Source of the DNA: Stegostoma tigrinum
Taxonomy: Eukaryota
Length of the DNA: 64,000 bases
Assembly: GCF_030684315.1 (NCBI RefSeq)
Contig: NC_081369.1
Location: 9,276,035-9,340,034 of the forward strand
Direction of reading: 5' to 3'
The notes beneath the pieces are model-generated. The model was not told the DNA's origin, made no database searches, and saw only the letters and a program-made list of their open reading frames with translations. The translations under genes and the position numbers were made by a program. This document shows positions 12,777-60,899 of the stretch, piece by piece. How positions within the stretch are numbered: the stretch's first letter is position 1; each line of letters begins with the position of its first letter.

Positions 12777-12890
12777 CTAGTGTAGGAATACTACTTCACT
12801 TTGGGACTATTGGGAGTGTGGCCACTGGACTAATGTTCCTGGCACTCATGATCAATGCTGAAACGTGGTCTCAACTGATGAATAACAATG
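12777..12890 (+). pseudogene. Orphan transmembrane exon remnant of a probable upstream IgSF receptor paralog
   Basis: Acceptor ctttcactcttgtag; phase-1 reading (A)SVGILLHFGTIGSVATGLMFLALMINAETWSQLMNNN; 114 nt, matching TM exons at 26570 (113) and 54220 (115); donor degenerate (G|ttaagt). Confidence 0.45.
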
Positions 12891-14859
12891 TTAAGTTCTA
12901 CTGTACCCTCACCATTTAAATGCAAACTTCAGTGTCAGTGATATCTTCTTACCTGAACTGGAAATGAGAATTCAAATGAAAGTTAACATTGATAACGATA
13001 TTATCTGTCATCAGCGAATGTCAATTATTTTGAAATACAGTTTACGGGAATGGTATGATTGCAGAATATTAAAAAAACTTTCATAGCAATATCGATAGTT
13101 ATTTGTTTGATAAAGATGTCCCTATTGAAAGATGTTAAATTAAGTGTGCCCTCCTCTACAATCAGTTGCTAACTCATTCTGTTGTGGTTCAAACCCGAAA
13201 GTGAAGAAGGACGGGTGTCTGGGAAACGTAAACTGTAAAACAATGCAATATCTCAACTTATCCATCTTACAATGCCAACGGGACTGATCTCCCATACTAA
13301 CTCCAATTCTCTACCTATCTCCATATTTGTTGACACTTTATTCATTTTGTTGTCGTGTGTTTTGCAAGAAAGTTAAATATTTCTCGTTTATCTCGATGTA
13401 CCTGTGAGATATTGGCGATGAGGTGATTGGGCAGGACGGGGTTACAGTCAGAGATTTTTTACGGTCGCCGATGGAATTTAGAATAGAACGGCTGATACTC
13501 AAAATAAGCAGTGTCTCATTCGAACATCTACAACTAAGTTAAGGAGAAACTTACTTGGTTTGAATATCTACAAACTTGACTACCTCAGCCAGTTGCGTTT
13601 GCTCTATTCTTAAATAAATTAAACACTATGATAGAAAATTTCTGAACTTTCAGGAATTAAAGAATCTGTACTGCGTGGCAGTAACTGCAGCTGAGGTGGA
13701 AAACCAGGCATGTTTGCCTGCAGAGGGAGAAACTGTCTTCAGGGGACTTATTATCCGGTCTAGGTCTAAACGGTTACTGTGCTGTGTTTGCTCAGTGCAA
13801 AACCATTTCAGCCAATAATCAAGAGAAACCTCGGCGAACCTTTCTCTGGAGCTACAGAGATATCAGGCAGGCTAAGAACCCCCGAAGTTTATGCAATGAA
13901 GACGTTCAGCAATGAGATGGTTTTCCTTGGTCCGCAAACGATGCTCTCTTATATTTCAAGTAAAATGCAGAACAAAAACCTCCAAGTTGCGATAAGATGC
14001 AGCTTTGCAAAACCCTTGTTGCAATCCAGACTTGTCAATCATTTTTGACATTGCTTTCACGTTTCATGTGTATTTGCATTCGGGAATATGAGAACTAAGT
14101 AATTATTTCAAATATTACTACATTTTATTTATTCCAGGATATGCAAGACATAAACAAGAGCTGGCAGATTCTGAAACGGCAACGAATTTTGCTGTAATAG
14201 AAATAGTATAACATAGTCATTCCAGAATATTTCAATCTACTGGCTGAAATATCGGTCAGCTGACAGTAACTCTTTCAAACTATGGTGAGAAATGATGGTG
14301 CAAGTAATTATTTTTTAATATTTCATGGAAATTTTCCGGGTTACTTAAAGATGTGCCGAGGTACTAACTGATTGTTAATAAAACGATGCTTCCTCAGGTT
14401 TGAGGAAGCATATCTTAATATTGTAAATTTGCTGCTCATGTCAGTAATACTGCCCTCTTGCGTAAACGCTGGCAGTATTATATATTATCTATAGGCAGCA
14501 CAGTGCTCCAATGATTGCATTTGTGTACACATGTATAGGTTATCGTTTGTGCGCCTCATCTCAAATTCTTGTCAACTCTTGTTGCAAATTGGTGAAAACC
14601 CACAGCTGTATATTTGTATTCTGGCACGTGTAGGGATAATGTACTAAGGCCGTGCATTTTATTGCATTGGATTTGATCAGAAGCAAGAAGTTATCCCGCC
14701 ACAAATATGAAGGGGAAAAATACATTTATGCCAAGGTTGATTTATTGGCATAGATCACCAACATACGATTAACATTTATGCAAATATGAAGGCAATGGAT
14801 TCTTGTGGATTGACACTGTTCACAACTGTGGCGTTTTGCAACCCTGCTGATAACAACTT

Positions 14860-14974
14860 CGAAGCACTGCCTAAAGCTGTGAAAATGATAAATTGGGTAT
14901 ATTATTATGAAACATTGGATTTGCAAGAAAGTGCAAAAATTAAGAGAAATATTCGAGAATGTGCCCAATTGTAG
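14860..14974 (+). pseudogene. ITIM-like cytoplasmic exon remnant
   Basis: VYYYETLDLQESAKIKRNIRECAQL* aligns with the last exon of the intact gene (YSPLKFSVSAKK...HAQ). The acceptor was not identified. Confidence 0.4.
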
Positions 14975-15535
14975 ATAAACAAGGGAAAGTGGACTACTGA
15001 CACTGTCCACGTGGAAACAATATAAATGAGTAAAAAACGTATACGCGCAAACGTCATTCTATTGTTGTCGATATTTTCTGATCAATATGTTAATGAATGA
15101 TATTACACAACCTCTTTAGCAGGAGGGACTTGACGCCAAACATCTAGCCCAGTAGCAGCAATACCGACATTTCTCCACAGGAGATTTTGGCTTTATTTCT
15201 GTGTTGTGTCATGTCAACTCAGGTTTGTGAATAGTGGGTGATAACATTCAACAGAGATATAAGACATTACATTGATGTCATTACATGGAACGTTATCTAC
15301 AGTAAAACGAAAATGCATTCAAGTATTTGTTTTATGTTCCGCTAAAGGTTTTTATGAATGAAAACTTTCTCACAAAATCTACTGCTATAATTTTTATATG
15401 AACTGAGTCAATATATTTCTCTGATTGTGGTTTCGCAATACTATGGTATTATCTGGTTTGTACAAAGTTCTGAATTCAACAAACACAGAAGCTATGCTAC
15501 CTGCTAAAAATCAGCATGCTACCTACTGAAAATCA

Positions 15536-22868: not shown

Positions 22869-22923
22869 ATGCCAGCGAGGATGATTTTTTTCTGCCTGAC
22901 ACTACTCGAGTTTATTCTTGCTG
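22869..22923 (+). CDS. Exon 1: signal peptide MPARMIFFCLTLLEFILA
   Basis: ATG at 22869, hydrophobic 18-mer, phase-1 donor G|gtactt, compatible with the V-exon acceptor. Confidence 0.8.
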
Positions 22924-25900
22924 GTACTTTGGTTTTTGATTCACAGAACTGCTTTAATTCATTAAAGACTTTCGATGCAGCTCCTCCTTCCATTAAATAA
23001 TCTTAATTCATCTATCTTGTTAAGAACTTAACTCTCCTATCTTTATGCCGAATACGACAGTTAACTATGTTTTATTTTGTTTCTGACAGCTGCGGACCAC
23101 ACTTGTTTTAGGGTTACTCAAATACCTAAAAGAGCAGCTGCGAACAGACGGGAAGACATTACCTTCTACTGTACATTCTCCATTTGTCAGCAAAGTTCAA
23201 AGCCAAATGTAATTTGGTGGAAGCAGGTTGGGAATGAACGTGTTCAGATTGAAGCCAGTGGTAGACAACAATTTGGATTTGAAAATGAAGCAACAGCGTT
23301 CCTTAGCTTGCTGCGCGTTGATATCCAAGATTCTGGACATTATCACTGCACGGTGAATTACCAAGGAATCGGTCAAAGAAGCGGAACCCCGTCCCAGCTA
23401 TTTGTGCGTGGTAAGTGAGAGCGACACTGTCTGAAATAATTTGAAATAACAAGATATTTCCTGATCGCTGATTTCACCAATATTCGCGGTTAAATCGTGT
23501 CCAGTTATCATTTATACAGGAACCTACCCTTGATATTTCAGTTCCGTTGAAAAAAAGTAAAATTACACGATCAATATCACCGGTAGAAAACTGAAGCTTT
23601 TATAAATATTAACAATTTACGCTGTAATTCTAAAGACAGCCTATACACTATGTGCTTTTTGCCGATATACAAAACTTCCGATGTACATAGGCAACAAGAA
23701 ACCGCTTTGTCAGGCTATTCGTCCACAATTCTTAGTCCCTGGTATGTTATTGAAGTCGTGTGACTGCCCGACAATTATTTTTTCTGAGATTGAAGATTCT
23801 AGAAATTTATTCTCACATTAATTTCACGTCATAATTTGAAAATCAGCATGAACTTATTTCATGAGTGAAGGAATCGATGCAAAAGAAACACAGTTTGACA
23901 GATACAAGTAGGTTGAATCACTGACCTAGAATAAATAAAACAACGCAGAGAATCTGTAGCAATAACAAATTTGCTGGAAAAGCTCAGCAGGTCTGGCAGC
24001 ATCTGTGGAGGACAAAACAGAGTTAACGTTTCGGGTCCGGCGACCCTTCCTCAGAACTTAAAGTTCAACTGATTCAATGTGTTTTGTCAATTGAAATGCC
24101 TTGTTTTTGAAATCCGACTGATACAGTGATCTTGGGGTAATCGGCAATCTGCAACTTCACCGCCGTTATGCACTTGAGCTTAAAAAAAACACCAGGGCAG
24201 ACGAGCACAATTTGCTTTGTTCCTTTCTTGTGCGCAAGCTCAATTTAATTAATTTATTCAAATATGCGACATAAGCATTGCGAAGCATTTTGTAGTTTTG
24301 TTCTGCCGAGGAAGGCCAAGTATTGGATTTGATAATTCAAGTAAAAATGGATAAAAGCCGCTGCCTGGAGAGCTATTTGTTTCATTAACTGAATGCTTGT
24401 GCATAAAATTAAGTTGAGAAGAAACTGCACTTCTGAGCATTGTATTTCTAGGAAAGCATAGCGTCTGTAAATCAGCCTCAAATTTAACAATTTCTGATTT
24501 GTTCCAGTAACTTGGCTTTGTTCAATCTCTGCTTGCAGTTGCTCCAGTCCCACTGAAAATTACGCCCAAGTTTCACGAAGAAAATTCACTTGTGTCTTTG
24601 ACCCTTCTGTGTGAAACAGCTGCATTTTATCCGGAGGATTTCACCCTCGCCTGGTATAAAAACGGCACGAAAACTACAGTCGGTATAAATACGAGCAAGG
24701 TGCAGAACAGTGAGGGACTGTATGAAGTATCCAGTTCTTTGGTTGATCCTCATCCTCCCTCAAGTAATCTCAAGTATACCTGTGAAATATCTCACATCTC
24801 CCTCAAGACGCCTGCTGTTGTAACCCACAGTATTTCCACATTTGGCGGATTCCAAAAAGGCGAGTTAGTTGCTGTCAGTTTTGTTACGAAATGCATCGTA
24901 GAATAGTGCAACGTGTGGGCCTAATCCGCAGTGGTTTCATGGAGATGTATTTAAATGTATTATACTAAGTTGACATCTCTGTTGTAAGAGCATCAAAACT
25001 TATTTGGTATTCTATTTCTTTGACTTTTGAAATAGTAATTATGTTCAGAATTGAGCTGATCTATCCATTTGTTTCTTCCTATCATTTTGTCCACGTTCAC
25101 CTTCTTTGCCCAAGCTATGCCTACCTCTTTGTAGGTTACGTGGCACAATCCCTCTTCTGTACCTACACTGGTCCTAAACATCACTTTTTCCTCTGTTACA
25201 TTGATGACTGCATTGCCATCTCCTTGTGCTCCCATGAGGAGCTCGAGCAGTTCATCCACTTCACCCACAGACTCCCACAGCTACCTGGAATACACCTCCT
25301 CCCACCCACCTTCCTGCAAAAATGCCATTCCCTCCTCCCAATTCCTTTGTCTCTGCCACATCTGCTCCGAGGATGAGGCATTCCACTCCCGTACATCTCT
25401 GATGTCCTCGTTTTTCAAGGATCGCAACTTCCCTGCTCAATGGTTGAGAATGCCCTCGACGGTGTCTCCCGCATTTCCCACAACTCATCCCTCACACATC
25501 CTCCCTGCAAAAACAACCAAAACAGAATCCCCCTCATCCTCATGTACCACCTCACCAACCTCCTGATCCAATGCATCATCTTCCGACACTTCCGCCATCT
25601 GCAATCCGACCCCACCCTTAAAGACGTTTTTCCCACCCTCATCTGCTTTTTGGAGGGACCACTCTCTCCATGAATCCCTCGTCCGCTCCACACTCCCCTC
25701 CAGCGCTACCACACCGACACTTTTCCCTGCAACCACAGGAAGTGCTACACCTGCCCCTACACCTCCCCCTTCACCCTCATCTCAGGTCCCAAGAAGACTA
25801 TCCACATCAAGCAGATGTTCACCTGCACATCTGCTAATGTGGTATACTGATCCACTGTTCCTGTTGTTGCCTCATCTACATCGGGGAAACCACGCGGAGG

Positions 25901-28900
25901 CTTGGGGACCACTTTGCAGAACACCTATTCTCTGTTCGCACTAAACAACTGCACCTCCCAGTTGCGAATCTTTTCAACTTCCACTCCCGTTCCGCAGGTG
26001 ACATGTCCATCCTGGGCCTCCTGCAGTGCCGCAACGATGCTACCTGAAGGTTGCAGGAACAGCGTCCTATATTTCACTTGGGAACCCTGCAGCCCAATGG
26101 TATCAATGTGGACTTCACAGGCTTCAAAATCTCCCTCCCCCACTGCATCCCCAAACCAGTCACTTTCTGGATTACCCCAATCCAGAAATTGAAGTGGACA
26201 GTTGAGAAAATGCTTGTGATATCATTCCTCTAAATTTAAGAAAGCATAATTAGTAAGTAAGAAAGCTCGAGAACAACAGTATTTTGATTCATGGGGAATT
26301 GACTTATCTCATATTCCTACCTTTCCGAAACAGTCCTTTGTGTTCCATAAATTGACAATCTATTCCAGAGATTGATTCAGAATTTGCCATGTTGGATCAA
26401 GAATTCACTTCGATATTTAACAGAAATAATCTTTGGCAGTTCAGCTTTTTCATTGTCCTTGAATAGCGCTGTGCAGTTGAAAGTATCATCACATTTTAAG
26501 CAAAGAACTAAAGTGACAATATTTTTAATTTAATGATCACATGCAAATAATGTCTTCTTTATCCTGCAGACAGTATCAACAATTCACTGGTCATCTGGCC
26601 TTCAGTTCGTTATGTGATTTTCTCGGCGCTTGTTGTAATTCTGTTCGTGTTTGGGACTACAAAGTACTTGAGGATATCAGAAGTAAGGTCTACTATCAAA
26701 GCTTGCTTTTCGCACAGGGCCTGGGTTCATTTGCCATTTCTGGAAAACAAGCAGGATACTTATTAGGGATAATTCGAATTGGTTTAAGACTGAAAAATGC
26801 AATCATTTTGTTCTTTTTTCCCCCGCAAACGTGGATTGCTCCAAAGCCACTTAAAAACACAAGAAGGTTCTTGGAAACATGAGTGAACCATTCAGCCCCT
26901 TTGGGCCTGTTCTGCCATTCAAAGAGATCATGGTTGATGAATGGCTTAACTCTATATCCTTGTCCCTAAACACTTTGCTTAACAAAAATAAATCGATCCC
27001 AGATTTAAAATTAAAATTAACTTCTATTTGTTGAAAAGTCTTGCAAACATGTGCATAGAAGAGCTTCCTCACATCTTTCTTGAATGATCTTGTTGCAAGT
27101 TTTAGAGTATGACCACCAGTTCTAGAATCCACAACCAGCAGAAGTAGTATATGTTACTGACAAAGTGTGAAGAGGGTCTTCGGTCCGCCTCCTCCTCTTT
27201 CCCTATTTATTTCAGAACCCTCACCCCATCCCCCTCTCTGATGAAGGGTCTAGGCCCGAGACATCAGCTTTTGTGCTCCTGAGATGCTGCTTGGCCTGCT
27301 GTGCTCATCCAGCTTCACACTTTGTTATTTGGATTCTCCAGCATCTGCAGTTCCCATTATCACTGATACTATATTACTGACACTCTCTTTTGCTGTTAAT
27401 GTCGTAAAGCCTTCAATTAGATCATCTCTCAACCTTCTAAATTAGAGAGAAAATAGTCTTAGTTTGTATAATCCCTCCATGTAATTAAATCCCTAAAGTC
27501 CACAATTATCATTCTGGTAATTGTACATCATACTCCTTCCAAGGTCAATGCACCTTTCCTGTGGTATGCTGCTCAGAACCGTTCACAGCTCACCAAAATG
27601 TTTTCAAATGTAAACAATGCTCACGTGTGTTAATTTCCAAAGGCACATTTCAGTTTTCAACATGAGAAATGAAATTTATCACAATAAATATGAAGTAGGT
27701 AATTCGATGCTTCTGTCAAGTAATGATTGCTCCTTGAAAGAATGGAGGATTAATAGCAGATTCTGATGTTGCAACCGTCTGATCTCTGCGAGCAACATAA
27801 TCAAATGTATTCTGCCTCAACGGAACATTCACATCCTTTCTCTAATACTTTGATTCAGAAAAATGCGCTCATTTTCTGCATGGAAACTGAGTCAATATTT
27901 TCATCACTCAATGCAATTATATTTCATTGGTTTGCAGGTAAAGAAGAATGCACAAGGCAATCAGACTGCCATGTCAATGTGGTAAGTTCATATCATCATC
28001 ATGCTTGGAGTTTGAAATGTTTGGATCAATGGCAATAATGGAAGAAATATACATTAATAATGACAGAACATTTTATATCTATTTATTGAAAGACTATTCA
28101 TCTGGTATGTGTGTGTTTCAGAGCCAGGTTTGAAGCGCAATTTGTACAACTTGTATTACTGATGAAGGTTGGCAAGTGGATCTTCTTTAAAAAAAAACCG
28201 TAATCATATCTTTGAGAATGTTGCAAGATTGAGTCACGTTTTAGGGTTGAGAACAAATTTACTGTCTAAACCCATTGCATCTAACACTTAACATTATGTT
28301 TCAGCATGAATATGAGGAAGTTTGAATTGTTGCATTGAACACTGAGATTAACATTGTCTTCATGCAGATATATCTATAATATGGATTCTGCAAGGGATGT
28401 CGAGTCTTGGTTAAATATGCTTAGTCCTTGATGTAGAAAATCTTCGAGACAATGAAAAGGACACTTATTGAAGTGTTGTTCTTGTCCTCACAGGAAGCCA
28501 TGGCGGAGGTTTCCTGCAATAGACTTAGGCAAAAACAGGAGAACTCCTAGACATACGTTTGAAATAGAGAAAAACATGCCTATTGAGGTAGGGCGGAGTG
28601 GGAGAACACAAAATCAGGATAAAATTGTGATTCAAGATAATAAAATGTGAGGCTGGATGAACACAGCAGGCCAAGCAGCATCTCAGGAGCACAAAAGCTA
28701 ATAAAATGTGAGGCTGGATGAACACAGCAGGCCAAGCAGCATCTCAGGAGCACAAAAGCTACTTGGCCTGCTGTGTTCATCCAGCCTCACATTTTATTAT
28801 CTTGGATTCTCCAGCATCTGCAGTTCCCATTATCTCTAAAATTGTGATTCAGCCTGACAATGAAGGCATTTGCTTCTATGGACATTAGCCAAATGTCATT

Positions 28901-29148
28901 TTGAAGCCGATTTTTGTGTCCTTCTGATTAGTGCTTTGCAGAAAGTTTATAAAAAAGGCCAATTAATAACATTTCCAAATAATATCTTTACAGCTCTCCA
29001 TGTTGCTATCGGCAGTAAGATGACATACAGTCCTCTAAAGTTCTCTGTTTCTGCGAAGAAGGCACAGAGATTGCTTGAGCTGCAGACTGAAAAACAAAAC
29101 AAAGTAACAGAAGATATCCATGCACAAGCAAGAAATAACAAGGCTTAA
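22869..29148 (+). CDS. Non-rearranging Ig-superfamily membrane receptor gene: leader + V(J-like) + C1 + TM + cytoplasmic exons (antigen-receptor-like, SIRP/NKp30-like architecture)
   Basis: Exons 22869-22923, 23090-23410, 24539-24859 and 26570-26682 all join in phase 1 into one open frame. Candidate tail exons are 27938-27981, 28494-28587 and 28994/29016-29148. AATAAA at 29241 and 29257. Confidence 0.85.
23090..23410 (+). CDS. Exon 2: IgV domain with germline-encoded G strand
   Basis: Acceptor ttttattttgtttctgacag, donor G|gtaagt, 321 nt. Motifs RVTQ.P, ITFYC, VIWWKQ, LSLLRV, DSGHYHC and SGTPSQLFV. Confidence 0.95.
23960..24058 (-). repeat. Penelope-derived short repeat with minimal hammerhead ribozyme core
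   Basis: Minus strand gtt-CTGAGGA-a-GGGTC-gccg-GACCC-GAAA-CGTT-aac at 24057-24022. Confidence 0.75.
24539..24859 (+). CDS. Exon 3: C1-set Ig domain
   Basis: Acceptor tctctgcttgcag; LTLLCETAAFYPEDFTLAWYKNG ... GLYEVSSSL ... YTCEISHISL shows C1 hallmarks (C-x-x-x-x-FYP, W, Y-x-C-x-x-x-H). 321 nt; donor AAG|gcgagt. Confidence 0.95.
25108..26160 (+). mobile_element. Penelope-like retroelement (Neptune-type), truncated; RT + Cys-knuckle + GIY-YIG; intronic
   Basis: PSYAYLFVGYV..FFLCYIDDCI (RT), PTDSHSYLEYTSSHP..CKNAIP (thumb), FPCNHRKCYTCPY knuckle, and FTCTSANVVY..IYIGET (GIY-YIG). An internal deletion lies near 25263. Confidence 0.9.
26570..26682 (+). CDS. Exon 4: stalk + transmembrane helix with Arg
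   Basis: Acceptor tcttctttatcctgcag; phase-1 reading DSINNSLVIWPSVRYVIFSALVVILFVFGTTKYLRISE; donor GAA|gtaagg. Read-through would stop at 26764-26766. Confidence 0.85.
26860..27600 (-). mobile_element. Decayed CR1 3' fragment interrupted by a Penelope-terminal insertion (~27160-27368)
   Basis: Minus ORF DSRTGGHTLKL..FKKDVRK; the insertion is flanked by tat(g/a)ttactgaca repeats. Confidence 0.75.
27938..27981 (+). CDS. Candidate short cytoplasmic exon (44 nt)
   Basis: Acceptor atttcattggtttgcag and strong donor G|gtaagt. Open as VKKNAQGNQTAMSM (phase 0) or GKEECTRQSDCHVNV (phase 1). Confidence 0.6.
28494..28587 (+). CDS. Candidate cytoplasmic exon (94 nt), reading frame uncertain
   Basis: Acceptor gttgttcttgtcctcacag, donor GAG|gtaggg. 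Open after phase-2 entry (WKPWRRFP...PIE); three stops in the phase-0 frame. Confidence 0.45.
28620..28851. repeat. Penelope-terminal insertion: perfect 61-bp tandem duplication + inverted copy, 15-bp TSD
   Basis: taaaattgtgattca at 28620-28634 and 28837-28851; duplicated unit 28638-28759; inverted arm from 28762. Confidence 0.85.
28994..29148 (+). CDS. Candidate terminal cytoplasmic exon with ITIM-like MTYSPL
   Basis: Acceptors end at 28993 (atctttacag) and 29015 (ctatcggcag). Frame ..KMTYSPLKFSVSAKK..DIHAQARNNKA*, followed by two AATAAA. Confidence 0.6.
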
Positions 29149-29240: not shown

Positions 29241-29262
29241 AATAAAGCATTACCGCAATAAA
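29241..29262 (+). terminator. Tandem polyadenylation signals
   Basis: AATAAA at 29241-29246 and 29257-29262, about 100 nt after the stop at 29148. Confidence 0.55.
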
Positions 29263-49577: not shown

Positions 49578-49865
49578 TTGCCGCTCGTATGACTCAATTT
49601 CTGCGATCGCCCAATGTAACAGTAAGACAGACCGTGACTTTTCACTGCTCGTTGCTGCTATTCCGAGGTAGGAACCAAGTCGTGGTGCGTTGGTGGAAAG
49701 CTGGTGACCAGGAATTCTTGAACTCAAAACAAGATTCCTGGAGAGTGTTTCACATTGAGAACGAAGCCAGCGCAAACCCACAATGTGCGTTTTAGAAATG
49801 TTGGCATCTGTTATTGCAGTTTGAACAGACTGGAAATGGAATCGGCATACAGCTGAATGTAAGCG
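49578..49865 (+). pseudogene. IgV pseudo-exon with J-like G strand
   Basis: Acceptor gtttttgcaacag; RMTQF..VTFHC..VVVRWWKAG..FHIENEASA, then +1 frame NVRFRNVGICYC, then back in frame TGNGIGIQLNVS. Confidence 0.9.
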
Positions 49866-52399
49866 GAGAGTAATCAACCCCAGCGACTTTGAAAATACGG
49901 CAGTTAGATGGACAGGAAGTTTGAAATGGCAGCTCTTCTGCTAATGATAATGCAAATGATTATTAATTTCTCCCCTATTACGGTAGGCTGAGAGAACACC
50001 CAGTGTGCAGCGGGCTAATGTATATGGAAAGGTGGAACAGCTTGGGTGCAGCATTCCCCAACATTACTCAGTGGCCGCAGGAAGTTGGCGCTCTTGTTGC
50101 TAAAATTTCAAATCGAAAAACTAGATGTTCAGCAATTGTCAGTGCAAAGCAAGAGGGGAAGTTGGCTACCACATGCTTCTGCTTAAGCTGCTATTTCGAA
50201 ATCTTATACCGCTGGTAGTCAAATGCATTTTTCAAAATGTACAACTCACAGCCTTCTCTGACTCACAATTCGAATTGTGATCTTAAATTAAGTGACCCAT
50301 TATCGCCCACCATCCACCCAGTGAAATCGCCAACTTATTCCAGACCATCCTTTACATGAGAATGAAACCCGCGACTTTCGAATACAATTCAAACATTTCA
50401 TTGCTAACCCCTTGTTGGGGATGTCCGAAATGAAAGTCACACACTTACCAATACCACAGCTAGATGTCTGCGGATCAGAATTATTTGAAACCCTATGCGT
50501 TCAACATTCCATCAGTTTTGCAAGAAAAGTTGAAAAGATTTCTGCAGGTTGGCGGCTTCGATAAATCCACTCACGTTGAATTATGCAATCCTGCATCCGA
50601 ACCATTCTGCAAGAGGGAGGGAAGGAAACATACATACGAAGTTCGTGAGATCGTGAAAAATTCGGTTTCTTGCCAAGGAAACATTTAACAGAGTTAGAAA
50701 AACAGAAGCGAGAATAAGCGGTATTGTTAAAACCCAAACAAATAACCTGGGCGCGGCGGGTGAAGACTATTTGATTTTATTTTTTTCTCTCGTTGTGACC
50801 ATAGAAACAAATGGAGATTTTCTTTTTTCTCTTGTTGGGTATCTGGAGCGAAATGTTTTTTTTAATTTCTCAACGTGTCACTCCAGCTAGCCAGCTATAT
50901 TATTCTCAGGAATTCATAGGAAACATACACAGGAACATGAAGGAGTTTCAAAGTAATTATGGCCAGATTATGGCAATCAGACAATCTTGGTTATTGCTCA
51001 CTTCTTGACCATCAAGCATCGACTATATGAACTGTACCTGTCGCTCTGCTGTCTTGATTTCATTTTTTAACCTGGATTTGCATCTTGGCGCAGGATCCAA
51101 CATGGTTCGTGTAACACCAAGTGTAACGATTCAATTACTCTTTGTATGGCCAAAATACAATAACGAACCTCTGTGCTCACTTTGCATCTGTCCCAAGTAG
51201 CATTGTAATTGAGATTATCCATTTAACGCAACTGCAAAAATTCAGAAAATCTTCCTGTCACTCTTAACTGTTATTGTGAAATATTGAAGAAACCGTACTC
51301 CATTGACTGCCCAAAGCTGTGTGTTAAAGTAGTCATTTGACCAAACACAGAGATTATACGTGAGAGAATTGCCTCTTTAACTAAAGGTATAAACACTATT
51401 TGAAGCCTTGCTGAAGCCGTCATTTTGGGAGTGACAATTATGGGTGAGTCGTCCTGTGTGAGAAGGGTTTGCAAGTCTTTAGTTCTTAAGAAGGCATCAC
51501 TGGACTCGAAACATCAAATGGTGCCAAACCAGTTGAGTTTCGCCAGCAATGTCTTCTTTTGCTTCAGATCTTTGGCATTCACAGTTCTTTGTTTTGTTTA
51601 TTTAAAGTTTTCTTCACCACATGCGAGCGTTTCTGCATGTGTTGTCAGTGAAACACCAATTGGATGGGCTTCAAATCTCGGTTGTTTTTTTTAGAAAAGA
51701 AATCTTCAGGGTCGTAGCACATAGCATTCCAATCAGAATATTTAGTACCTAAATGACAAAAATGTTTAACCATACAGCTTCCAGTCAAATATGCAGTCAT
51801 TCCAAATTTGCAGCAATTCAGAATGTTCAACTCTAACCACATTTTTCACAGCATTTCAAAGCTTGAATGAATTGAACAGTTCAAATGACCAGGCAATGAT
51901 TAGGGAAGAAAGATCAAGAACTGATTTTGAGAACTTGTAGTTTTAATCATCACGATCAAGCTGGCTATTTCATTTGTGATACACACCTTTTGGTGTGTAT
52001 TTTTTATATAAGCTGACAACTAGTTTTTCTTTTCACTCCCATAATACGTTTTGATGCTGGTGTCTCTTAAAATACTGTCAGTACAATGTCTGGAAGCTAA
52101 CCATATCAAATTCACCCATCATTAAATTGCAGGATCTGATCAGATTATCCAGGCTTCAGTATTTCCATTTTATTGGCAGGGTTGGAATGTATATAATTAA
52201 TAGTATCAGTAATCAGCCCAATAATTCATCTCTTGTCCATGGTTCCAAGCTATTGTTTCATCGAAGAATGTTTTGCATTGCTGAGAGTGTAGCTTGCAAA
52301 GCCTAGAATTTGCATAGATGCAATGGGGAAATAGACTGTTCAGCTCCCCTAGATATTGTTAAATGTAAGGACGTAAAAAGCAGAAACTGCTGCATAGCA

Positions 52400-52960
52400 T
52401 TTAATGCTACAATTCTTTTCAATATCCATTCATTCCTTTGGTCCCACTGAGATTATTGATCTCAATCTTGACTAAATTCAACAAATGGACATCCACGACC
52501 CCTAGGATTCGAAACTGTCTGGCCTTTGATCAGAGATCACAGCCATGGGGAATACTTTCCAATCTAACCATTCCCTCAAAATATTTTGCATGTTTCAATT
52601 AGATCAACTCTAAATCTTGCCAATTCTGGGCAGTAAAGGAGCAATTTGCACAAACTTTTCAAAGGACAGAGATAGTAGAAACTGCCAGTTCTGGAGAATC
52701 TGAGATAACACGGTGTGAAGCTGGATGAACACAGCAGGCCAAGCAGCTTCAGAGGAGTCGGAAATTTTGACATTTCGGGTCTCGACGCTCCTCTGATGCT
52801 GCTTGACCTGCTGTGTTCATCCAGCCTCACGCCATGTTAGCTCTTTTCAAAGGACAGTTGCCTTCTCTTGTGAGCCCTAGAGTCTTTCTTTGAGTAAGAT
52901 GGCCAAAGCTGTATGCAGTACCTCAGGTCCGAGCTGATCAGTGCCCTTTGTAGCTGTGGG
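52400..52960 (-). mobile_element. Decayed CR1 fragment with nested palindromic Penelope-terminal repeat (52670-52842)
   Basis: Inverted gctggatgaacacagcagg / cctgctgtgttcatccagc; cttttcaaaggacag is duplicated on both sides. Confidence 0.7.
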
Positions 52961-53599
52961 AAGGCATTTTTATTTCAGACTTAATTAAATAATTGAATTT
53001 AAATCCATACTTTTGTATAATCTGTCCTAACTTAGTTGTCTGCTTTGGCTATTACACGAGCTGCCTGCTTGAAGTACGAATCTCAGAAGATGAGAACAGA
53101 GAGGCACAACAAATAATTGACATAATAATTTGTAATAAGTGGCAATTAAAAAAAAATAAAACAGCACAGGCTACGGGTAACTGAGAAATGCTGTCTTCCT
53201 ATCCATTCAAATTCTTTCAAGTCACAAAAATGCACTATGTAATTGAAATCAGTGGATGGTGCTCCTTTATGAGATTTAGTGTGTAAATATCGTTGCCATA
53301 CACTAATCACATAGCATAAGCAAACAGGAACAATCAGCTTTAATGTTTGATTGCACTTACTATTACAGGATTAAGATTTAATAATTTAGCAAGCAAAAGG
53401 TAAAATAAATTCCCAGTTACAATAGCCATGTGTTTTCTTACCTTTCCCATGATCTTCTAAAGCTATTTGGCAAGTCCATATCAGTAGTTATAGAACATAG
53501 AATAATACAGCGCAGAATGTCCTTAAATTTTAAATTAATTTAGACAGAATCTGTCATCAGAGATTTAAGACACAGAAGCTCTGAAACATAATGTGGTCC

Positions 53600-53700
53600 C
53601 TCAAGGAATTGTAAAGGATTCCTTGATCTTTTTATAAACAAGAGCAGAGGAAGTCTCGCAGTGTCCTGGCCACCACATTTCTCTCAACTCATCTTGTTGA
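53600..53700 (+). mobile_element. DeuSINE-like (SacSINE1/AmnSINE1-type) fragment
   Basis: gtaaaggattcc..aagagcagaggaagtctc..gtgtcctggcca resembles the Deu domain; a longer decayed copy lies at ~59705-59940. Confidence 0.5.
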
Positions 53701-54219
53701 GGCAAATGAACGTACTTTTATCCAGGTGAATGCTCTGGAAAAGAACATTTTCTTTATTTGAGCATTGAATACATCCAATTCAAATATGATGCGGATAATA
53801 TCAAAAGCGTAACTGTCTTACCTCCATCTTTAGAAAAGTGCCATCATCAAAGCATTAACTCACCAGTTTTTTTCACTGCTGTTCATGTGGAATGTGTAAA
53901 TTTTAAAACAAATCAATTGCTATGCTAATTGTTTTGGTGCACAGCATACAGGAGCTAGAATCAAATGTTCAAACTCACAACTCGGCTACTTAAAGAGGAA
54001 GTTCACGGATTTGAAGTTGTAGCCTGGTCCATATTGGAATATTGAATATCTGATGTGTTTTTGTACAGGCAGTTTATACTGCTTATACTTCACAACATCA
54101 TCTGTATAGTGCCATCAGTACAAACTGGGATATTGAAGTTCATTAAGCACCTGTCGATCTAAAGCATGATCATTTTCCTTCTAAAATTAAATTTCTTTTT
54201 TTTTGTGTGCCTCTTGCAG

Positions 54220-54334
54220 ATTGTAGTCCCAATGCATCCATTCTTTGCCGGACGTACTTCTGTGTAGCAACATCTTTCTTATTACTGATTAGTCTTGCAC
54301 ATTTACAGTAGTTGTAAATGCTGAAAATATAAAG
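54220..54334 (+). pseudogene. Transmembrane pseudo-exon of the second paralog
   Basis: Strong acceptor (T-run..ctcttgcag) and donor AAG|gtaaga; reads (D)CSPNASILCRTYFCVATSFLLLISLAHL then frameshift/stops; 115 nt. Confidence 0.6.
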
Positions 54335-55129
54335 GTAAGACAGGCGTATAGTTACATTAATAGTTGGATTTCTAGACCTAATATTAATGAGTAATGTAAA
54401 TACACAAATGATATCAAGTAGAAAAGTCACTTGAAACTAAAATTAATCTGCAGTAACTCATTTTTGGAAACAAATGCATTCCTTAACCTTGTAGTTCACA
54501 TTCAATTCAACTTATTTTTGAGTTCATCAGAGTATAACATTACTGTTGTAAACATCAAGAACATCCAGATTAGATGAGCGCATTTACAGGCAGAGAAAAG
54601 TTCCTCCCACAGTCTGCACTGATATCATACAACTCAAAGGGTCAGAATTCCAGGTGCCGATGCAGGCAAGATTAGTCGTGGGAAACGCAGATGACTTGTC
54701 AGTTTTAGAGTTCCACTAGATTACATTGCTATTTCTCAAGTAAATGTAGTGCTAAAGTAAGTGGAAAAATGTAAACCTTCAATAAACAATAAGAACACTA
54801 GAACTAGGGGCAGTCATAGGCCATCTGGTTTGTATGGCCTGCTTTGCCACTCAATAGAATTATGACATATCTTGATTTTTTACTTTATCTTTCTGGTAGT
54901 TCACCTAATAGCTTGATTCCATGAAACACCAAAAATCTAGCTTTAAACATTTTTGAAGATGCCACACCCACAACCCTCTGGGAAGAAAATTCCCAATATT
55001 CAAAACCCATACTGAGGAATCACTATGGGAAACAGCCCGTTTAAAATTTATGCAAACGGAGAGCTAGGCACAGAACTCTTCCATCACCTACAAATGCATT
55101 CATCTTAAAGTAGCCATGTACAGGGATAG

Positions 55130-56860
55130 TAATAATGAGTTGTATCCTAACGTTAGGCTGGGCAGCTTTTGCTACCTACATGCAATTCAGGCCTATGATA
55201 AGATGGTAACATAGTATAGAGAACATTGCAGGCAGCATCATGACAAATTAGTTTGCTATCATACGAGAGAGTAATATTTTCATGGAGAGATTCCGCAGAA
55301 TGCTTGTGGTACAGAAGGTTCTGAGTTTTTGTATGTACGAATCAAAAATAATTAACACATGGATACAAAGATAATTAGAATGTTCTCCCTTATTGTGAGA
55401 AGTGTGGAGTGTAAAAGTAGAGGCATGTTCTGTAGTTGTGCAAGCCATTGGTGAGACACATCGAGTACCCCGTACAATTTAGTCTCATAACTTAATTAGA
55501 TGATATTTGCAGTGGTGGAAGTAGAGAGAACATTTATTAGCTTTAATCCTGATATGTACGGGCTGCCTTGAGATTGAACATTGAGCAAGTTGGATTTGTA
55601 GTCATTGGATTTTAAAAAAATGAAATCTGATGTTATTAAATTATGTAAGATTCTGGGGTAGTTTACAGAATAGTTGCTGAAAGGATATCACCACAGCAGA
55701 GAATCAACAAAAAAGGACAGAGTTTTAAAAGAAATGGGTGTTCCATTTAAGATTGGCATGTGGAAGATTTGTTTTCTTGTCAGAAGGTAAGTTAATGTTT
55801 GGAATCTTTTACTTAGGAAGCTGTGGGGGTCAAATAATTGATTAGACAGATTTTTGATGTACAAGCCAGTATGAGGTTAATGTCCATTGTGAGTTGGGTG
55901 TGGGGCATAGTGATTGTAATCAAGCATTGAAGTCATAGACTCAATCAGATTAACCTTGATTTTATTGAATAGTACTGCAGGCTTGAAAAACCAAACGGCT
56001 TACTCCTTCTCCTATTTCATTTGTTTTTATGAGGGAACGGGTATTTCTATTCCCACAATTTGCCTGCAGGCTCAAGACATGCCTACAGTTCCATTCTAAA
56101 AAAAAATTTCAAACCTTTTATTAATCCCTTTGCCCTAAGCTTTGCCAAAGGTTTCTAAATGCCTGAAATGGCTTTCCGAACTTTCAAACTTTCCGAATAT
56201 TTGGCATCAATTGTGACTTTGCACTTAATTCTTCCTTTCAATCTGAGTGCATAAATGTTCTCCTTCCACTATTACTTGTCTTTTCCATCTGCTTGACTCT
56301 AAACATTCCTGTGAATAGTTATGCAGATAAGTTCACATCAGAACTTTCAATGCAAAAGAACGCTTCTTAACACTTCTTAGAACTCATGTTGCCAAGTTTG
56401 GAGTTTTTGAGCTATTGGGACAGGCTGAATGGCCTGAGGCTATTTTGCCTGGAGCATTGGAGGTTGAGAGTTGACTTTATAGAAGATTATAAAATCATGA
56501 GGGGCATGGATAGAGTAAATAGATAAAGTCTTAACTGCGGAGTGGGGGGAGTCCAAAACTAGAGGCAATCTGTTTAAGATGAGACGGGAAAGATTTAAAA
56601 GGGATGTAAGGGACATCATTTCATGCAGATCATGTGGCTTGTATGGAATGAACTGTCAGAGGATATGGTAGAGATTGGTCCAATTACAACATTTAAAAGG
56701 CATCTGGATGAATACATGAACAGGAGGGTTGAGAGAAATATGTGCCAAATGATGGTAAATGGGACTAGATTAATTTAGAATATCTGGTTGGCGTGCAAGT
56801 GTTGGACTGAAAGGCCTGTTTCCGTGCTGTTTATTTCTATAACTCCACGACTCTATAACT
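55130..56860 (+). mobile_element. Two decayed CR1 3' fragments (55130-56030, 56380-56860)
   Basis: CR1 ORF2 C-terminal signatures and tails (ggactgaaaggcctgtttccgtgctg). Confidence 0.75.
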
Positions 56861-58309
56861 AGGTTTTCTTTTATGCTTCTTGCAATAAACCAAGTCTAGC
56901 CTCTTGTTTGATTGTGCAATTCATAGGCCTTCATGCACTGAATTATCTTGTCACCATTGGTCACTGAGTCTCCCAGAAGTCAGCCCGAAATGTTGCTTTC
57001 AAGAAGGTCATTTCCACTTTAAGACTGAATGTATATGTTGCTTTCAGCAGTTCCTTGTTTTAAATATTATCTTGGATTCATATCAATATAGGCTCCTCTA
57101 CGTCTAATTATACAGTTCTCTCTTTTTCTACTTCATGTGTGAGATGTGGGCCTCACTGGATGGCCTATATTATCACCAGTCGCCAGCTGCCCCTGAACTG
57201 AATGGTTCACTAAGTATTTTGAACGGAAGTTGAGACTCAACAACATTACCTAAGATTGTTTGTATTTAAACCTGATTTATTTCAACTTTAGTTCATTTTC
57301 AGTTAAAATCTGTGAACTAAAATATCCAATGCTCCATTTATCTTTGGCTCGTAGCTGAAGCATCTCAAATTGATTATAATTAATGCAGTTTGATTTTCAC
57401 TTTTGCATGTAATTTTTCTCCTGCATCTATTGTAACTTTCATAACTAATGAGTTATGGAAGTTACTGCATGATACAAGTATGATGTGTTCTCAATTATGT
57501 CACTATATCATAGATATATGTTAATGTTTTATATACACACATCTTTTATTTACATATTTGTTTATTTTATTGTATATCGGCAGTGTACTGTTAAAATGTC
57601 TTAAACTAAGGACATATTTGGAGAAGGTGTACGTTTTTATGAGTTTTCTCCCTCTTGCATCTGTAGCTTTTAGGGCAATTTATTTAAAAACACGTTGATA
57701 AACCTTTCTCCCCCCCCGAATCTCTGTGGTTCATTTGTCCTTTGACTTCAGTATAGTAGAAGATTGTCAAGGCTAGGTCATTAAGTGCATTCAAGGCTGT
57801 GATAAATACATTTTTAATCAGGAAGTGAATTAAAGGTTTGGGTGATGACATTAGCTGGCAAGCTTACAATTAACTTGCAGACTCAGGGAATCAATGGGTG
57901 GATGGTGATCAAAAGGCCCCTGGTTTTCAATTCACTCATCAGGCTCAAACACACCTGCATTGGGAATAGATAATGCAGCTCCCAGCTGGTGTAGTATAAG
58001 TTAGGATTTGAAATGTGTTTGTAGCCAAGTTTTCGAAACAATCAAACAAATTATATCAACCTGCTCACTAAGCTCTGTTTAATATCTCCCATCGCTGGAG
58101 CCAATGAATGGATAGCCAAGCTAGACAACACAATATAAGCTTCTCCCATAACATAATAGTAATAGATTTATGGAGAACTGTAAGAGCATTAATCAGTGTA
58201 TCCTTGATTTATGTTTGTTGAAATCCAAATGCTTTCAGTATACTTTAACAGCAAATAAGAAGGTTTTATATAACTGTTTCTTTTATACAAACGGTAGCAT
58301 TTTATATTT

Positions 58310-59080
58310 TAATGGGATGGGAAATCAATAATAAGGCCAACATTTGCAGACCAGACCTTTTTGCTCTTGACAAACTTGTAGCATGCCGCATTTCTGTACT
58401 TCTGCAGACTATTTGATGTAGATAGGCACACTACTGTTTTTAGGAAATGAGTTCCAGGATCTCGCCTACCAACAGTGAAGGAATGATGATATAGTTCAAA
58501 AGCAGGATGGTGTGAAAAGGAACTTCCAGGCAGTGTTCTCCAGGGTATGATACCCAGTCCTTGTTGACCTTAAAAGCTACAAGTTTTTAGTTAGTGAATG
58601 TATCTTTCATATAGTACACAATACTGCCAGTGCTGTTTTCTGTGGTGCACATATTATCAATGTCAGGAGGATTGAATATTCGATTTGGTAGAAGACAGGG
58701 TTTATTGGCCTGAATGATGACAAACCTCATGAGTGGGAATACTGCAACATACAGCCAGACAAGTGGAGAATATTCCATTACACTTCTGAATTGTGCCATG
58801 CAGACTGTGGATGTGCTTTGGGAAATCAGGACGTGAGTTACTTGCTACAGTCTTCCGGGCTTCTGACTTTCTCTTCCAGCTACGATAATTAAATGGCTGG
58901 TGCAGTTAAGTTTCTGGTCAATGCTAACCCCCAGGTTTTTGATGGTAGGATATTAGCTGATGCTAATGCCATTGCAGTTCAAAGTGAAATGCTTTGATGC
59001 TCTCTTATTGGAGATGGCCATTGCCTGGCATTTGTGTAATAAAAACTGTTATTGCCATTTAGAAGTCCAAGTCTGAATGT
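58310..59080 (-). mobile_element. Decayed LINE 3' fragment of a second CR1/L2-type family
   Basis: Minus ORF AQFRSVMEYSPLVW resembles the conserved RS.MEY...W motif; a matching + strand tail is at ~4400-4597. Confidence 0.7.
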
Positions 59081-59184
59081 TAGATCTGATAAGATGCTAA
59101 TGTTACACATTTTAACAAATTAAACATAGTGATACTTGGTTTATAGATTAATGTATGAATTCATAATGCAGTTATGCAAACCAA

Positions 59185-59370
59185 GCCGTGTAGAAACTCA
59201 GCAGCTCTGGCAGCTTCTGTGGACAGAGAAACAGAGTTAGTGTTTCAAGTCTGGTATGACTCTTTGGAAGTTCTGAAGGAGAGTCATGTTTGAGTCAAAC
59301 CATCAACTTCACTTTTTTCACCACAGATGTTTCCAAACCTTCTGAGTTTCTTCAAGAACTTTTGTTCCCA
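59185..59370. repeat. Old palindromic Penelope-derived repeat (same family as 23960-24058)
   Basis: Inverted arms aaactcagcag..ctgtgga / ccacagatg..ctgagtttc around a decayed ctgaagga..caaac core. Confidence 0.6.
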
Positions 59371-60899
59371 TTCCAAATTCAGCCAGATCCACAGTGTTTT
59401 GCTTTTGATTCAAGCTATGCATTGACTGGATTTTCTGTTTTATAATATTCCACTTAAAAATATTATGTTTATAGTATCTCCACTGCAACATTATTTTAAT
59501 TTGATATTCTGTATCAATTATCTTTCATGGGGAAGGTTGATTCCCTTATAATTTTTTGACTAATTTACTTTTCCATGTTATATCACAGTTAATTAGAAAG
59601 AGACTTGGGTACACAATCCACAATGAAATGCCAATGTGAGCAATTGGTTCAATGCTCAAAATGCCAAAATTCTGTAGTGCATTATAAAGAAAGTCCATCT
59701 ACTCTGTAAGATGTACTTAAAAGACCCCAGAACAAAATTTTAAGAAGAGCAGAGATGCTATTCTTAGCGCTCCAATTGATATCTATCAATAGAAATGATG
59801 AAAATAGATAAATCACCATCATCTTATTTCTGGTTCAAAAGCAATTCTGTCGGCAAGTTGACTGTTTGTACTCTTACAATGTTGACTGTGTTTCCAAAAT
59901 TATTTCATAGGATGTGGAGTACTTTCGGATAAACGCATCCATTCATTATTTTGACAATGCTAGCACTGCATCTTGATCAACACAGTCAAATACCATTCCA
60001 GGTTTTAAAACTGTTGGCATGTTAAATGTGTTCCCTGGATACTCTGTTCATATTAATTTTTGTTTTCCTTCCAGCTCCCAAATATGATATTCCAAAGACG
60101 CAATGCATTTGAAGATCTGCAGCAATAACAGTGAATCTGAAATGCAAAGTGAAAGGTTGAAATCAAAGCAGTACTCTAGTGCGAGCCGTGAGCTCAGACA
60201 AAACATCAAATGTTAACCAACCTGCATCAAAATGTAAGAATCAGTGTAAGAATAGGAGGGAACTTGTGCATCCCAGATGGTTGAAGAAGAAATCTGAAGT
60301 GTATTCCATAACAGCCATAGGTTCTCTTTGCAGAACACCTACATTGTTTTGAGCAGCATAGTTCATAAGTGTGTTCATAAAATAATTCCAGGGAGCAGCA
60401 ATATCATAAAATCACTGTATTTCATCATATTTGCTTACTCATACAAAACATTATTTTTGTGAATGAAAATCTCTGAATTGACAATACTCTTACCTCTGAT
60501 CAGTTTTGGTAGTTAGGCCAATGTTTTCAATTGGATTTTCACATTTTCCTGTAATCATTGTGGGTTTATTAATTGTTAAAGGAAGCCCATACATAGGAAA
60601 GTACCATGAGCACAAATCAAATTTATTTCCTGTTGGGTAATTGGGAAATTGTATGATAATTTAAAATGGCTGATAGGGAATTGACAGCCGATTATCCATG
60701 TCTGAATTTGTATTTACCAAGGCTAGGTAGAATATGCACAGCAAGAGCTCCTTCAATTATTGATACAGGAATAGAAAGTCACTGAAATGTACATTTTTCC
60801 TTTAGAGAATGTGAATTGGGAGTTAAAAAAATGGATAAATGGTGGTCCAATTCAACAAATATTTTGCTTCTAATTTCGTTATTGAGAATATACAACCAT

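Follow-up and report, generated by a model that had tools for sequence, protein, structure and literature searches.

A zebra shark V-C1 receptor gene with a transmembrane arginine and a damaged inhibitory-type tail: a candidate activating member of a paired-receptor family

Layout of the V-C1 gene and its neighbours

The window analysed here, a stretch of 64,000 nucleotides of the zebra shark (Stegostoma tigrinum) genome, contains on its forward strand a receptor gene with one V and one C1 immunoglobulin exon, further called the V-C1 gene, and two broken genes of the same family. The following features were identified (positions are those of the window; TM, transmembrane).

22869..22923, + strand: leader exon; first ATG at 22869, second ATG at 22881; phase-1 GT donor
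23090..23410, + strand: V domain in a single exon with a J-like last strand (Pfam, match to P0003, family consensus, structure model)
24539..24859, + strand: C1-set Ig exon with a GC donor (Pfam C1-set, E 1e-10)
26570..26682, + strand: TM exon of 113 nt, ending in phase 0 (family exon 114 nt, phase 1-1)
26608..26610, + strand: Arg codon CGT, 18 residues ahead of the first cytoplasmic Lys
27938..27981, + strand: tail exon 1, 44 nt (9/14 residues match the paralog P0006, family frame)
28494..28587, + strand: tail exon 2, 94 nt (102 in the family)
28994..29148, + strand: terminal tail exon; acceptor at the family position; one base short of phase 0
29020..29037, + strand: MTYSPL, homolog of the membrane-distal ITIM of the family (by homology of the terminal exon)
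29241..29262, + strand: two AATAAA signals (29241 and 29257)
12777..15016, + strand: upstream relic, TM exon (12777-12890, TT donor) and tail exons (tail exon 2 at 14634-14735)
49578..60262, + strand: P0046-class pseudogene farther downstream, with a broken V exon (from 49578) and a tail at about 60074-60262

The leader exon matches residues 1-18 of the zebra shark RefSeq protein P0003 at 100% (tblastn), and the V exon is 100% identical to the same protein. The V exon is recognized by Pfam both as I-set (E 7e-8) and as V-set (E 2.5e-4), a V fold is present in the predicted structure model of the ectodomain, and the J-like strand carries the family motif GNGTG with Pro replacing the second Gly. 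Only one C1 exon lies between the V and TM exons; its GC donor matches 8/9 consensus positions and has the correct phase. Zebra shark RefSeq proteins are matched by both the V and C1 exons, and their models ignore the GC donor and thus stop just after 24903. Neither AATAAA nor ATTAAA occurs after the C1 exon in 24860-25400, and both AATAAA signals lie downstream of the terminal exon. The leader, V, C1, and TM exons are all open, with usable splice sites. A protein search with the TM exon, weak given its short query, matched none of 17 candidates with an E cutoff of 10.

Contigs of four public runs from one sample were examined, apparently of DNA since they continue through introns. The contigs cover the V-C1 gene sites without a gap at any junction and contain no splice joints. 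When the listed differences were assigned to long contigs by depth, with a further 146 differences outside the listing, the Arg codon, the GC donor, both tail exons, and both acceptors were unchanged in this sample. Contig depth, which is not equivalent to copy number, is flat over the V, C1, TM, and tail exons.

Both neighbouring family genes are broken. Tail exon 2 of the upstream relic has an in-frame stop, and no C1 exon was found in the downstream pseudogene. The TM exon of the latter (54220-54334) encodes ILCRTYF, as the earlier note on this DNA had observed, with the Arg codon CGG at 54249-54251. That note listed this Arg beside the one of the V-C1 gene; as support for an activating signature it was rejected, since the exon is frameshifted and contains a stop, and since the residue aligns to Trp of the Arg-free P0046 class (weak pairwise alignment, E 0.013).

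A near-identical ectodomain is found in the zebra shark paralog P0006 (XP_059507523.1), in which 209/212 ectodomain residues are identical to the V-C1 gene (V, 106/106; C1, 103/106), whereas the signalling exons have diverged (TM, 10/37; tail exon 1, 9/14; tail exon 2, 8/25). P0006 has an uncharged TM segment and three tyrosine motifs, VQYSAV, VTYTTL, and TEYAAL, and is spliced after C1 at the same residue as the GC donor of the V-C1 gene. In this predicted protein model, from which the joining of ectodomain and tail is taken, a close paralog of the V-C1 gene combines an ectodomain much like its own with ITIMs in the tail.

Transmembrane arginine and tail exons

The TM exon is one base shorter than that of the family, the upstream relic having 114 nt, and it is still open and hydrophobic despite 27% identity to the twin P0006. 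The Arg codon had been assigned to the predicted membrane span from the letters, and both its identity and its coordinates were reproduced: the residue is included in the best Kyte-Doolittle windows of 17, 19, 21, and 23 residues, at position 2 in the 17-residue window and at position 8 in the windows of 19-23 residues, and a 15-residue hydropathy core is the only window that excludes it. By hydropathy, a basic residue sits within the predicted TM segment of the V-C1 gene.

When TM residues are placed by anchoring on the cytoplasmic end, this Arg falls in the Cys column of the family, and CGT is one transition from TGT, which suggests derivation from a Cys codon by that single change. Anchored on the conserved Gly, it lies deeper by one residue than the Arg of most such members, and in a gapped MAFFT alignment of TM segments, which the end-anchored placement replaced, it stands four columns away from the Arg of the family. 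The exon itself is of the inhibitory type, different from the separate Arg...Asp-His class of the family, and lacks the NxxR motif, which is described as a feature of FcR-gamma partners (PMC2413239).

Family exon boundaries in the tail were taken from the naturally exon-skipped P0011, P0139, and P0048 (3/27 rows) and from the upstream relic. The whole-tail profile scores the tail exons of the V-C1 gene low (3.5 and -2.1 bits), and their homology is based instead on a scan with the twin and on tblastn. Following the phase-0 TM donor, tail exon 1 is translated in a frame shifted from that of the family. Tail exon 2 ranks first of 127,846 frame positions against the exon of the twin (score 45; next, 29), stops exactly on a GT, and also aligns at the DNA level to the upstream relic; the family profile gives it just 5.1 bits, and Phe occupies the place of the first ITIM tyrosine. 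The terminal exon follows the family-position acceptor AG at 28992-28993, aligns to the terminal ITIM exon of the family (tblastn with P0024, E 2.7e-4, 37% identity), and has 50 open codons in the family frame with a stop near the family's end; its ITSM segment is deleted and its last Tyr is replaced by His. In total, the tail has lost one base at each of two junctions and 8 bases in tail exon 2, and of the family tyrosines only that of MTYSPL is retained.

MTYSPL was found at the position that the earlier note had reported. By homology of its exon it is a real motif; the pattern by itself is weak, since by chance 258 of 1000 frames of 44 codons without a stop, taken from the window, contain a loose Yxx[LIV]. 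With Met at -2, it fails the strict ITIM consensus (S/I/V/L)xYxx(I/V/L) quoted in PMC12151841.

On the path that uses all exons at family-equivalent sites, MTYSPL is out of frame and translation ends at a TGA stop at 29021-29023. The earlier gene layout was right in the parts it gave and omitted tail exon 2 and the 28994 acceptor; since these two place MTYSPL out of frame, a dual function is weakened. The splice proposed there, from 27981 to 29016, does leave the YxxL in frame. Of 54 enumerated splice paths, 9 retain MTYSPL; an in-frame motif requires either exon skipping together with another acceptor (29016 or 28932) or a weak donor (28597 or 26687).

If, in a main or regulated isoform, tail exon 2 were skipped and the 29016 acceptor used (or else the 28597 donor used), the Arg and MTYSPL would be united in one protein, to which an ITAM adaptor as well as an SHP phosphatase could be recruited. 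We regard such a receptor as unlikely, although several observations besides the nine paths are in its favour: (i) tail exon 2 is missing from 3/27 family tails, (ii) P0048 of Mustelus asterias (XP_078066431.1) has just such a layout, with a TM Arg, no tail exon 2, LAYASL kept, and His at the ITSM tyrosine, (iii) Met at -2 has a precedent in two long inhibitory-type tails, P0014 and P0039, (iv) the N-SH2 domain of SHP-2 is reported to accept Met at -2 and to prefer Phe at +5, which MTYSPL has (PMC12151841), and (v) the last exon, read in the family frame, stays open until near the family's end. However, two simultaneous departures from the family pattern are required, as the splice must both skip a homologous exon and bypass the AG at 28992-28993. 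The sites it needs are weak: the 29016 acceptor is preceded by another AG at a distance of 22 bases and has 6/10 pyrimidines, and the 28597 donor matches 4/9 consensus positions versus 6/9 for 28587. The SHP-2 preferences quoted in PMC12151841 do not include Pro at +2, which also occurs in none of the 35 family motifs tallied, the partner ITSM is deleted, and in one study the in-frame ITIM of NKp44-1 recruited no SHP-1, SHP-2, or SHIP (PMC6514059).

The family in cartilaginous fishes

Members of the V-C1 receptor family were found in sharks, rays, and chimaera. In RefSeq they are labeled MHC class II beta-like, tapasin-related-like, and, for many relatives, SHPS1-like. The MHC class II beta label was rejected for the V-C1 gene, its N-terminal domain being an Ig V/I-set domain by Pfam and the structure model, not beta-1. 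We found no description of the family in the literature, although it may be covered in subscription-only work on PRARP/VJ-C1 genes and shark NCR3.

Among 65 non-redundant members with a TM segment, at least two tyrosine motifs are present in 0/14 members with a basic TM residue (Arg or Lys 14-19 residues before the cytoplasmic end) versus 26/51 others (Fisher p 3.7e-4); 25 of these 51 Arg-free members have fewer than two motifs, and truncated gene models may be among the many short tails. The fixed-position rule missed the Arg rows P0043, P0048, P0050, P0054, and P0078 and included the doubtful rows P0034, P0081, P0094, and P0118, corrected in a later count; with the five Arg rows reassigned, the numbers are 0/19 versus 26/46 (p 1e-5). 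On the ectodomain tree, none of seven independent pairs runs counter to this pattern, the two features being in opposition in 5.5/7 on average, with a median sign-test p of 0.06, above 0.05. A single clade of Arg members is rejected on the same tree (p-AU 4e-81). These counts support the recurrence across the family of a basic residue at the TM depth seen in the V-C1 gene, accompanied by short tails.

Interpretation and relation to known receptors

With a probability of roughly 0.55, we read the V-C1 gene as a descendant of an inhibitory gene and as an activating member of its paired-receptor family. Activation is its likely signal because MTYSPL is out of frame in the likeliest spliced message. 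The earlier proposal of an activating or dual-function receptor thus stands in its first half, favoured by the family pattern and the inhibitory twin, and its second half is possible and not favoured.

The proposed course is as follows. An inhibitory ancestor would have gained the TM Arg, and its tail would have lost its tyrosine signals. The main message would include all exons at family-equivalent sites and encode a 62-residue tail without MTYSPL. The Arg would pair with an acidic residue of an ITAM adaptor, either CD3-zeta or, if present in sharks, FcR-gamma, so that ligand binding would activate the cell. Of the adaptors that had been named for this receptor, CD3-zeta is reported as expressed in sharks (PMC10768021), and a 2014 survey reports shark genomes without FcR-gamma (PMC4016189). 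Ectodomain exchange would keep the receptor matched to its inhibitory twin, both probably recognizing the same ligand; such a matched pair plausibly counters pathogens that exploit the inhibitory form. There are precedents for both steps: in KIRs, gain of a TM charge and a tail stop turned inhibitory into activating receptors (PMC2213150), and homogenization of ectodomains between opposing receptors is known (PMC3210942).

Several observations were counted against the activating reading: the RefSeq models of the V-C1 ectodomain have no TM segment; the open terminal exon retains a Tyr; the TM exon is of the inhibitory type with a deeper Arg and no NxxR; and the family count is open to truncated models, short-tailed Arg-free members, and the median p of the pairs test.

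It is quite unlikely that the gene is simply decaying, with a neutral Cys-to-Arg transition, a tail shaped by pseudogene drift, and an ectodomain recently copied from a working paralog. In favour are the broken state of both family genes beside it in the window, three frame-shifting losses in the tail, an Arg codon a single transition away from TGT, and the Arg of the pseudogene, which shows that such changes occur by chance; against this, the four upstream exons are open with usable splice sites and remain intact in the public sample, the damage is limited to the tail and hits its tyrosines, and an Arg at the same depth recurs in other lineages. Slightly less likely still is a secreted V-C1 decoy that ends shortly after C1 and makes little use of the TM and tail exons, as suggested by the five RefSeq accessions (P0003 three times, P0004, P0005) that read through the GC donor and by the weak search with the TM exon, since that donor is near consensus, in phase, and used at the same residue by the twin, the polyadenylation signals lie past the last tail exon, and the TM exon is intact.

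The activating reading was compared with known receptor systems. SIRP-alpha and SIRP-beta resemble the family in a joined VJ-type V domain followed by C1 and in tails with ITIM and ITSM, and the family profile matches SIRP-alpha 2wng (E 3e-31) and SIRP-gamma 4i2x (E 2e-26); in the same search, IgA, UrIg2, and an antibody construct outscore SIRP-alpha, and immunoglobulin chains score equal or higher. SIRPs have a V-C1-C1 ectodomain and Lys as the TM basic residue, unlike the V-C1 gene with its Arg, and SIRP membership was rejected given the single C1 exon between V and TM. KIR2DL4, with a TM basic residue plus a tyrosine motif in one gene, is likewise similar to the V-C1 gene. The same combination is found in NKp44-1 and the rat bifunctional Ly49 (PMC6514059, PMC3210942); in such bifunctional receptors the motif is in a documented frame, whereas the family-equivalent path of the V-C1 gene leaves it out of frame. 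The activating KIR2DS and Ly49 receptors recurrently, in separate lineages, gained a TM basic residue and lost the tail ITIMs from inhibitory ancestors (PMC2213150), as proposed here, yet they have another ectodomain and a DAP12-binding Lys, in contrast to the Arg near the outer leaflet.

PIR-A/PIR-B, KLRI1/2, and NKG2A/C show the same near-identical ectodomains with diverged signalling exons as the V-C1 gene and its twin, and in PIR and KLRI the activating forms carry a TM Arg but lack an ITIM (PMC3210942); these pairs have other ectodomain types and are backed by DNA tracts and function, whereas the V-C1 pair is backed by protein models. NKp30 (NCR3) shares a single-exon VJ domain and a TM Arg, which pairs with CD3-zeta or FcR-gamma (PMC6514059), but it has one Ig domain, whereas the V-C1 gene has V and C1 with a three-exon inhibitory-type tail; membership was rejected given the intact C1 exon between V and TM, NKp30 is not among the five PDB matches of the V domain, and the window yielded no marker gene for linkage to the MHC. 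UrIg and UrIg2 share an elasmobranch non-rearranging VJ exon followed by C1, and UrIg2 is the second-best PDB sequence match, mainly by generic C1 similarity. They form Ig-like dimers with three C1 domains in UrIg and nine in nurse shark UrIg2 (PMC12227049), and membership was rejected, the V-C1 gene having one C1 versus three or more. In structural comparisons, the top VIA-align match is 4zso_E of the B7-H6/B7 comparison (Z 16.6, rmsd 3.6, 193 aligned, 20% identity), tied with IgNAR V, Rst, and PD-L2; neither NKp30 nor SIRP is among the 50 matches listed, which excludes neither, and Foldseek matched only generic Fab and TCR chains.

Receptors that pair a TM charge with a remnant ITIM are already known, and this feature alone is ordinary. 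More tentatively, and with the balance against it, the V-C1 gene might belong to a large cluster of VJ-C1 paired receptors, non-rearranging and so far undescribed, extending from chimaera to rays and sharks and filling the role of KIR, LILR, or SIRP; its activating members would have repeatedly arisen or been re-matched by ectodomain exchange, and the V-C1 gene would be caught midway in the switch from inhibitory to activating, with splice choice at the last intron perhaps toggling the remaining ITIM. The RefSeq labels and the dropped TM segment of the V-C1 gene conceal such genes. The 2014 survey reports sharks without KIR/LILR-type genes (PMC4016189), and the V-C1 family supplies concrete activating and inhibitory shark candidates with an antigen-receptor-like V-C1 ectodomain. 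As the P0003/P0006 pair differs almost solely in its signalling exons, the adaptor, the phosphatase, and the shared ligand would be directly testable.

Structure and annotation of the receptor gene

The feature described in the earlier note, a transmembrane (TM) Arg codon at 26608-26610 and the ITIM-like motif MTYSPL at 29020-29037, spans the 3' half of a plus-strand receptor gene.

Exons of the receptor gene
22869-22923, +, leader exon
about 23090-23410, +, V domain in a single exon (Pfam Ig V domain)
24539-24859, +, C1 exon, with a GC donor at its end
26570-26682, +, TM exon
27938-27981, +, tail exon 1
28494-28587, +, tail exon 2
28994-29148, +, tail exon 3 (terminal), followed by two AATAAA signals

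The Stegostoma tigrinum RefSeq entry P0003 (XP_059507815.1, 818.1, 819.1) has V and C1 domains identical to those of this gene. The label MHC class II beta-like that it carries is mistaken: Pfam and a confident structural model (mean pLDDT 88.9) both identify the first domain as an Ig V domain. Every RefSeq model carrying exactly this ectodomain continues past the GC donor (24860-24861) and loses the TM segment; the twin, the inhibitory-type paralog P0006, itself a predicted model, splices at the same residue. The domain layout does not match that of NKp30, SIRP, UrIg or MHC class II beta; by fold, B7-H6 was not separable from other V-C molecules.

The V domain carries two extra Cys, one near the N-terminus and one after the B-strand Cys, and its J-like GxG motif contains Pro where the paralog P0004 retains Gly. 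High-copy repeats occupy the introns (25040-26140, 27200-27370, 28630-28850), and a reverse-transcriptase-like LINE fragment, typed by eye from its ORFs, lies at the window start (68-2149).

Transmembrane arginine and the twin

The Arg codon, MTYSPL, the Arg of the downstream pseudogene and the in-frame splice from 27981 to 29016, from which an activating or dual-function receptor had been proposed, all agree with the window sequence. In hydropathy scans over 17 to 23 residues, the best segments include the TM Arg, which lies 18 residues ahead of the first cytoplasmic Lys. Public contigs from four runs of one sample, apparently DNA and uninformative on splicing, cover the region with no gap at the exon junctions, which argues against an assembly error. 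These contigs differ within the TM exon at 26599 (Pro-to-Ser) and 26659 (Thr-to-Ala), the Arg between them being unchanged. The exon closes with TKYLRI (26659-26676), which fits the TxYxxI ITSM consensus right at the membrane edge and is included in every TM-containing splice form; the aligned position of the twin is not Tyr.

The pseudogene Arg (ILCRTYF) lends no support, as the closest relative, P0046, has Trp at this position and the exon is broken. The pseudogene (49578-60262) belongs to the P0046 class, in which the tail is non-ITIM and rich in Cys and Lys; members of this class from Hemiscyllium and two Chiloscyllium species fall in a single 90% cluster. The window copy yielded no C1 exon.

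The twin (XP_059507523.1, 363 aa) falls in the 90% cluster of P0003. It matches the window gene at 106/106 residues in the V exon and 103/106 in the C1 exon, and at 10/37, 9/14 and 8/25 residues in the TM exon and tail exons 1 and 2, respectively; its TM segment is uncharged and its tail has three tyrosine motifs. As far as this predicted model holds, the pair combines near-identical ligand-binding exons with diverged signalling exons, as reported for paired receptors of opposing function (PMC3210942).

The receptor is most likely activating rather than dual, and by analogy it would work as activating paired receptors do, signalling through an ITAM adaptor bound by the TM Arg. Exon structure, Arg, twin and tail damage are read directly from sequence; the mechanism would further involve expression, splicing, adaptor binding and a ligand shared with the twin. 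In NKp46 and NKp30, the partner of the TM Arg is an Asp in CD3-zeta or FcR-gamma (PMC6514059). CD3-zeta is expressed in sharks (PMC10768021); FcR-gamma was not found in shark genomes in a 2014 survey (PMC4016189), a result that may change with newer assemblies. The NxxR motif, described as typical of many FcR-gamma partners (PMC2413239), is absent from the TM segment of this gene.

Tail exons and the position of MTYSPL

Three of 27 family rows naturally lack tail exon 2 and thereby fix the family boundaries, with a phase-0 end for tail exon 1 and a start of the last exon 11 codons before the ITIM tyrosine. This start corresponds to 28993 in the window, where the exon begins one base later because of the AG at 28992-28993. 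The tail drawn in the earlier note omitted tail exon 2, an exon homologous to a segment of the twin: it scores highest among 127,846 frame positions compared with that segment (45 vs 29 for the next) and ends on GT. Compared with the upstream relic, a broken family gene, tail exon 2 has 94 rather than 102 nt and the TM exon 113 rather than 114 nt. Tail exon 2 has Phe at the place of the first ITIM tyrosine, and the last exon aligns to the family terminal exon with an 8-residue gap spanning the ITSM tyrosine and with the final tyrosine replaced by His.

Because three inhibitory-type tail exons are damaged, the gene appears to derive from an inhibitory ancestor. Activating KIRs are described as originating by gain of a TM charge and loss of ITIMs (PMC2213150), and the evolution of activating forms is usually proposed to be driven by the need to offset pathogens that engage the inhibitory receptor (PMC3974974). 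The relic (12777-15016) retains TM and tail exons with a TT donor and an in-frame stop, and shares the Phe at the first ITIM tyrosine; no V or C1 exon was found for it in the window.

With all exons joined at family-equivalent sites, the tail has 62 residues and ends at a TGA stop (29021-29023), so that MTYSPL is not included; skipping of exon 2 onto 28994 also gives an early stop. MTYSPL is kept in 9 of 54 enumerated splice paths (site strength being judged by consensus counts only), each of which depends on an acceptor outside the family pattern or on a donor of lower strength; a protein combining the TM Arg with MTYSPL is unlikely. This dual-function reading is nevertheless retained, since the last exon, read in the family frame, has 50 open codons and keeps its tyrosine, two long family tails also have Met at motif position -2, SHP-2 tolerates this residue and favours the Phe found at +5 (PMC12151841), and one member, P0048, has the proposed layout: its TM segment carries Arg, tail exon 2 is missing, LAYASL is intact and the ITSM tyrosine is lost. 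P0048 (Mustelus asterias XP_078066431.1), in which one RefSeq model joins the TM Arg to one intact ITIM, is the better candidate in the family for a dual-motif receptor. Of the original proposal, the activating part is strengthened by the twin and by the Arg and tail counts, whereas the dual part is weakened by the position of MTYSPL off the family-site path.

The V-C1 receptor family

With P0006 as query, a full scan returned 903 proteins with E values up to 0.001, and the analysis drew on the best 150 of these. All 20 representatives looked up by name, and likewise 6 named members, come from sharks, rays or chimaera. From 97 proteins shorter than 520 aa whose C1 match scored over 55 bits, removal of 10 (the window's own or duplicates) and of 22 without a TM segment left 65 members. 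Fourteen of them have a basic residue located 14-19 positions ahead of the cytoplasmic end, and none of these 14 has two or more tyrosine motifs, compared with 26 of the 51 others (p 3.7e-4), the short-tail class being inflated by truncated gene models in Arg and non-Arg groups alike. The counts are 0/19 vs 26/46 with five rule-missed Arg rows added, and 0/15 vs 26/50 (p 1.6e-4) when four doubtful rows are also removed.

On a phylogeny of 52 ectodomains, 9 changes are needed to account for the 11 Arg rows (106 of 500 shuffles were as low), which are often sister to long-tailed members; a single Arg clade is rejected (p-AU 4e-81). The tree is rooted at midpoint only, so it does not give the direction of change. 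In 7 independent pairs, a long tail never occurs with Arg (sign test, median p 0.06). A long branch (0.68) leads to the zebra shark trio. Six members (P0023, P0036, P0044, P0047, P0056, P0082) share a distinct TM class in which Arg stands close to the outer end and Asp-His or Glu-His at the inner one, although their ectodomains belong to unrelated lineages; in P0038, Gln replaces the Arg of this class.

Joined-VJ genes, including SIRP, NITR, NKp30 and PRARP, are grouped together in PMC11599192, and VJ-C1 genes are discussed in PMC10751288 and PMC12227049. Literature listings and abstract openings, drawn mostly from open-access papers, contained no account of the V-C1 family; its genes may be listed in supplements to the papers on shark MHC and on UrIg2. 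The presence of a TM Arg codon and of MTYSPL in the gene is real and the kind of receptor is already known; the surrounding family is a more interesting lead than the feature itself.
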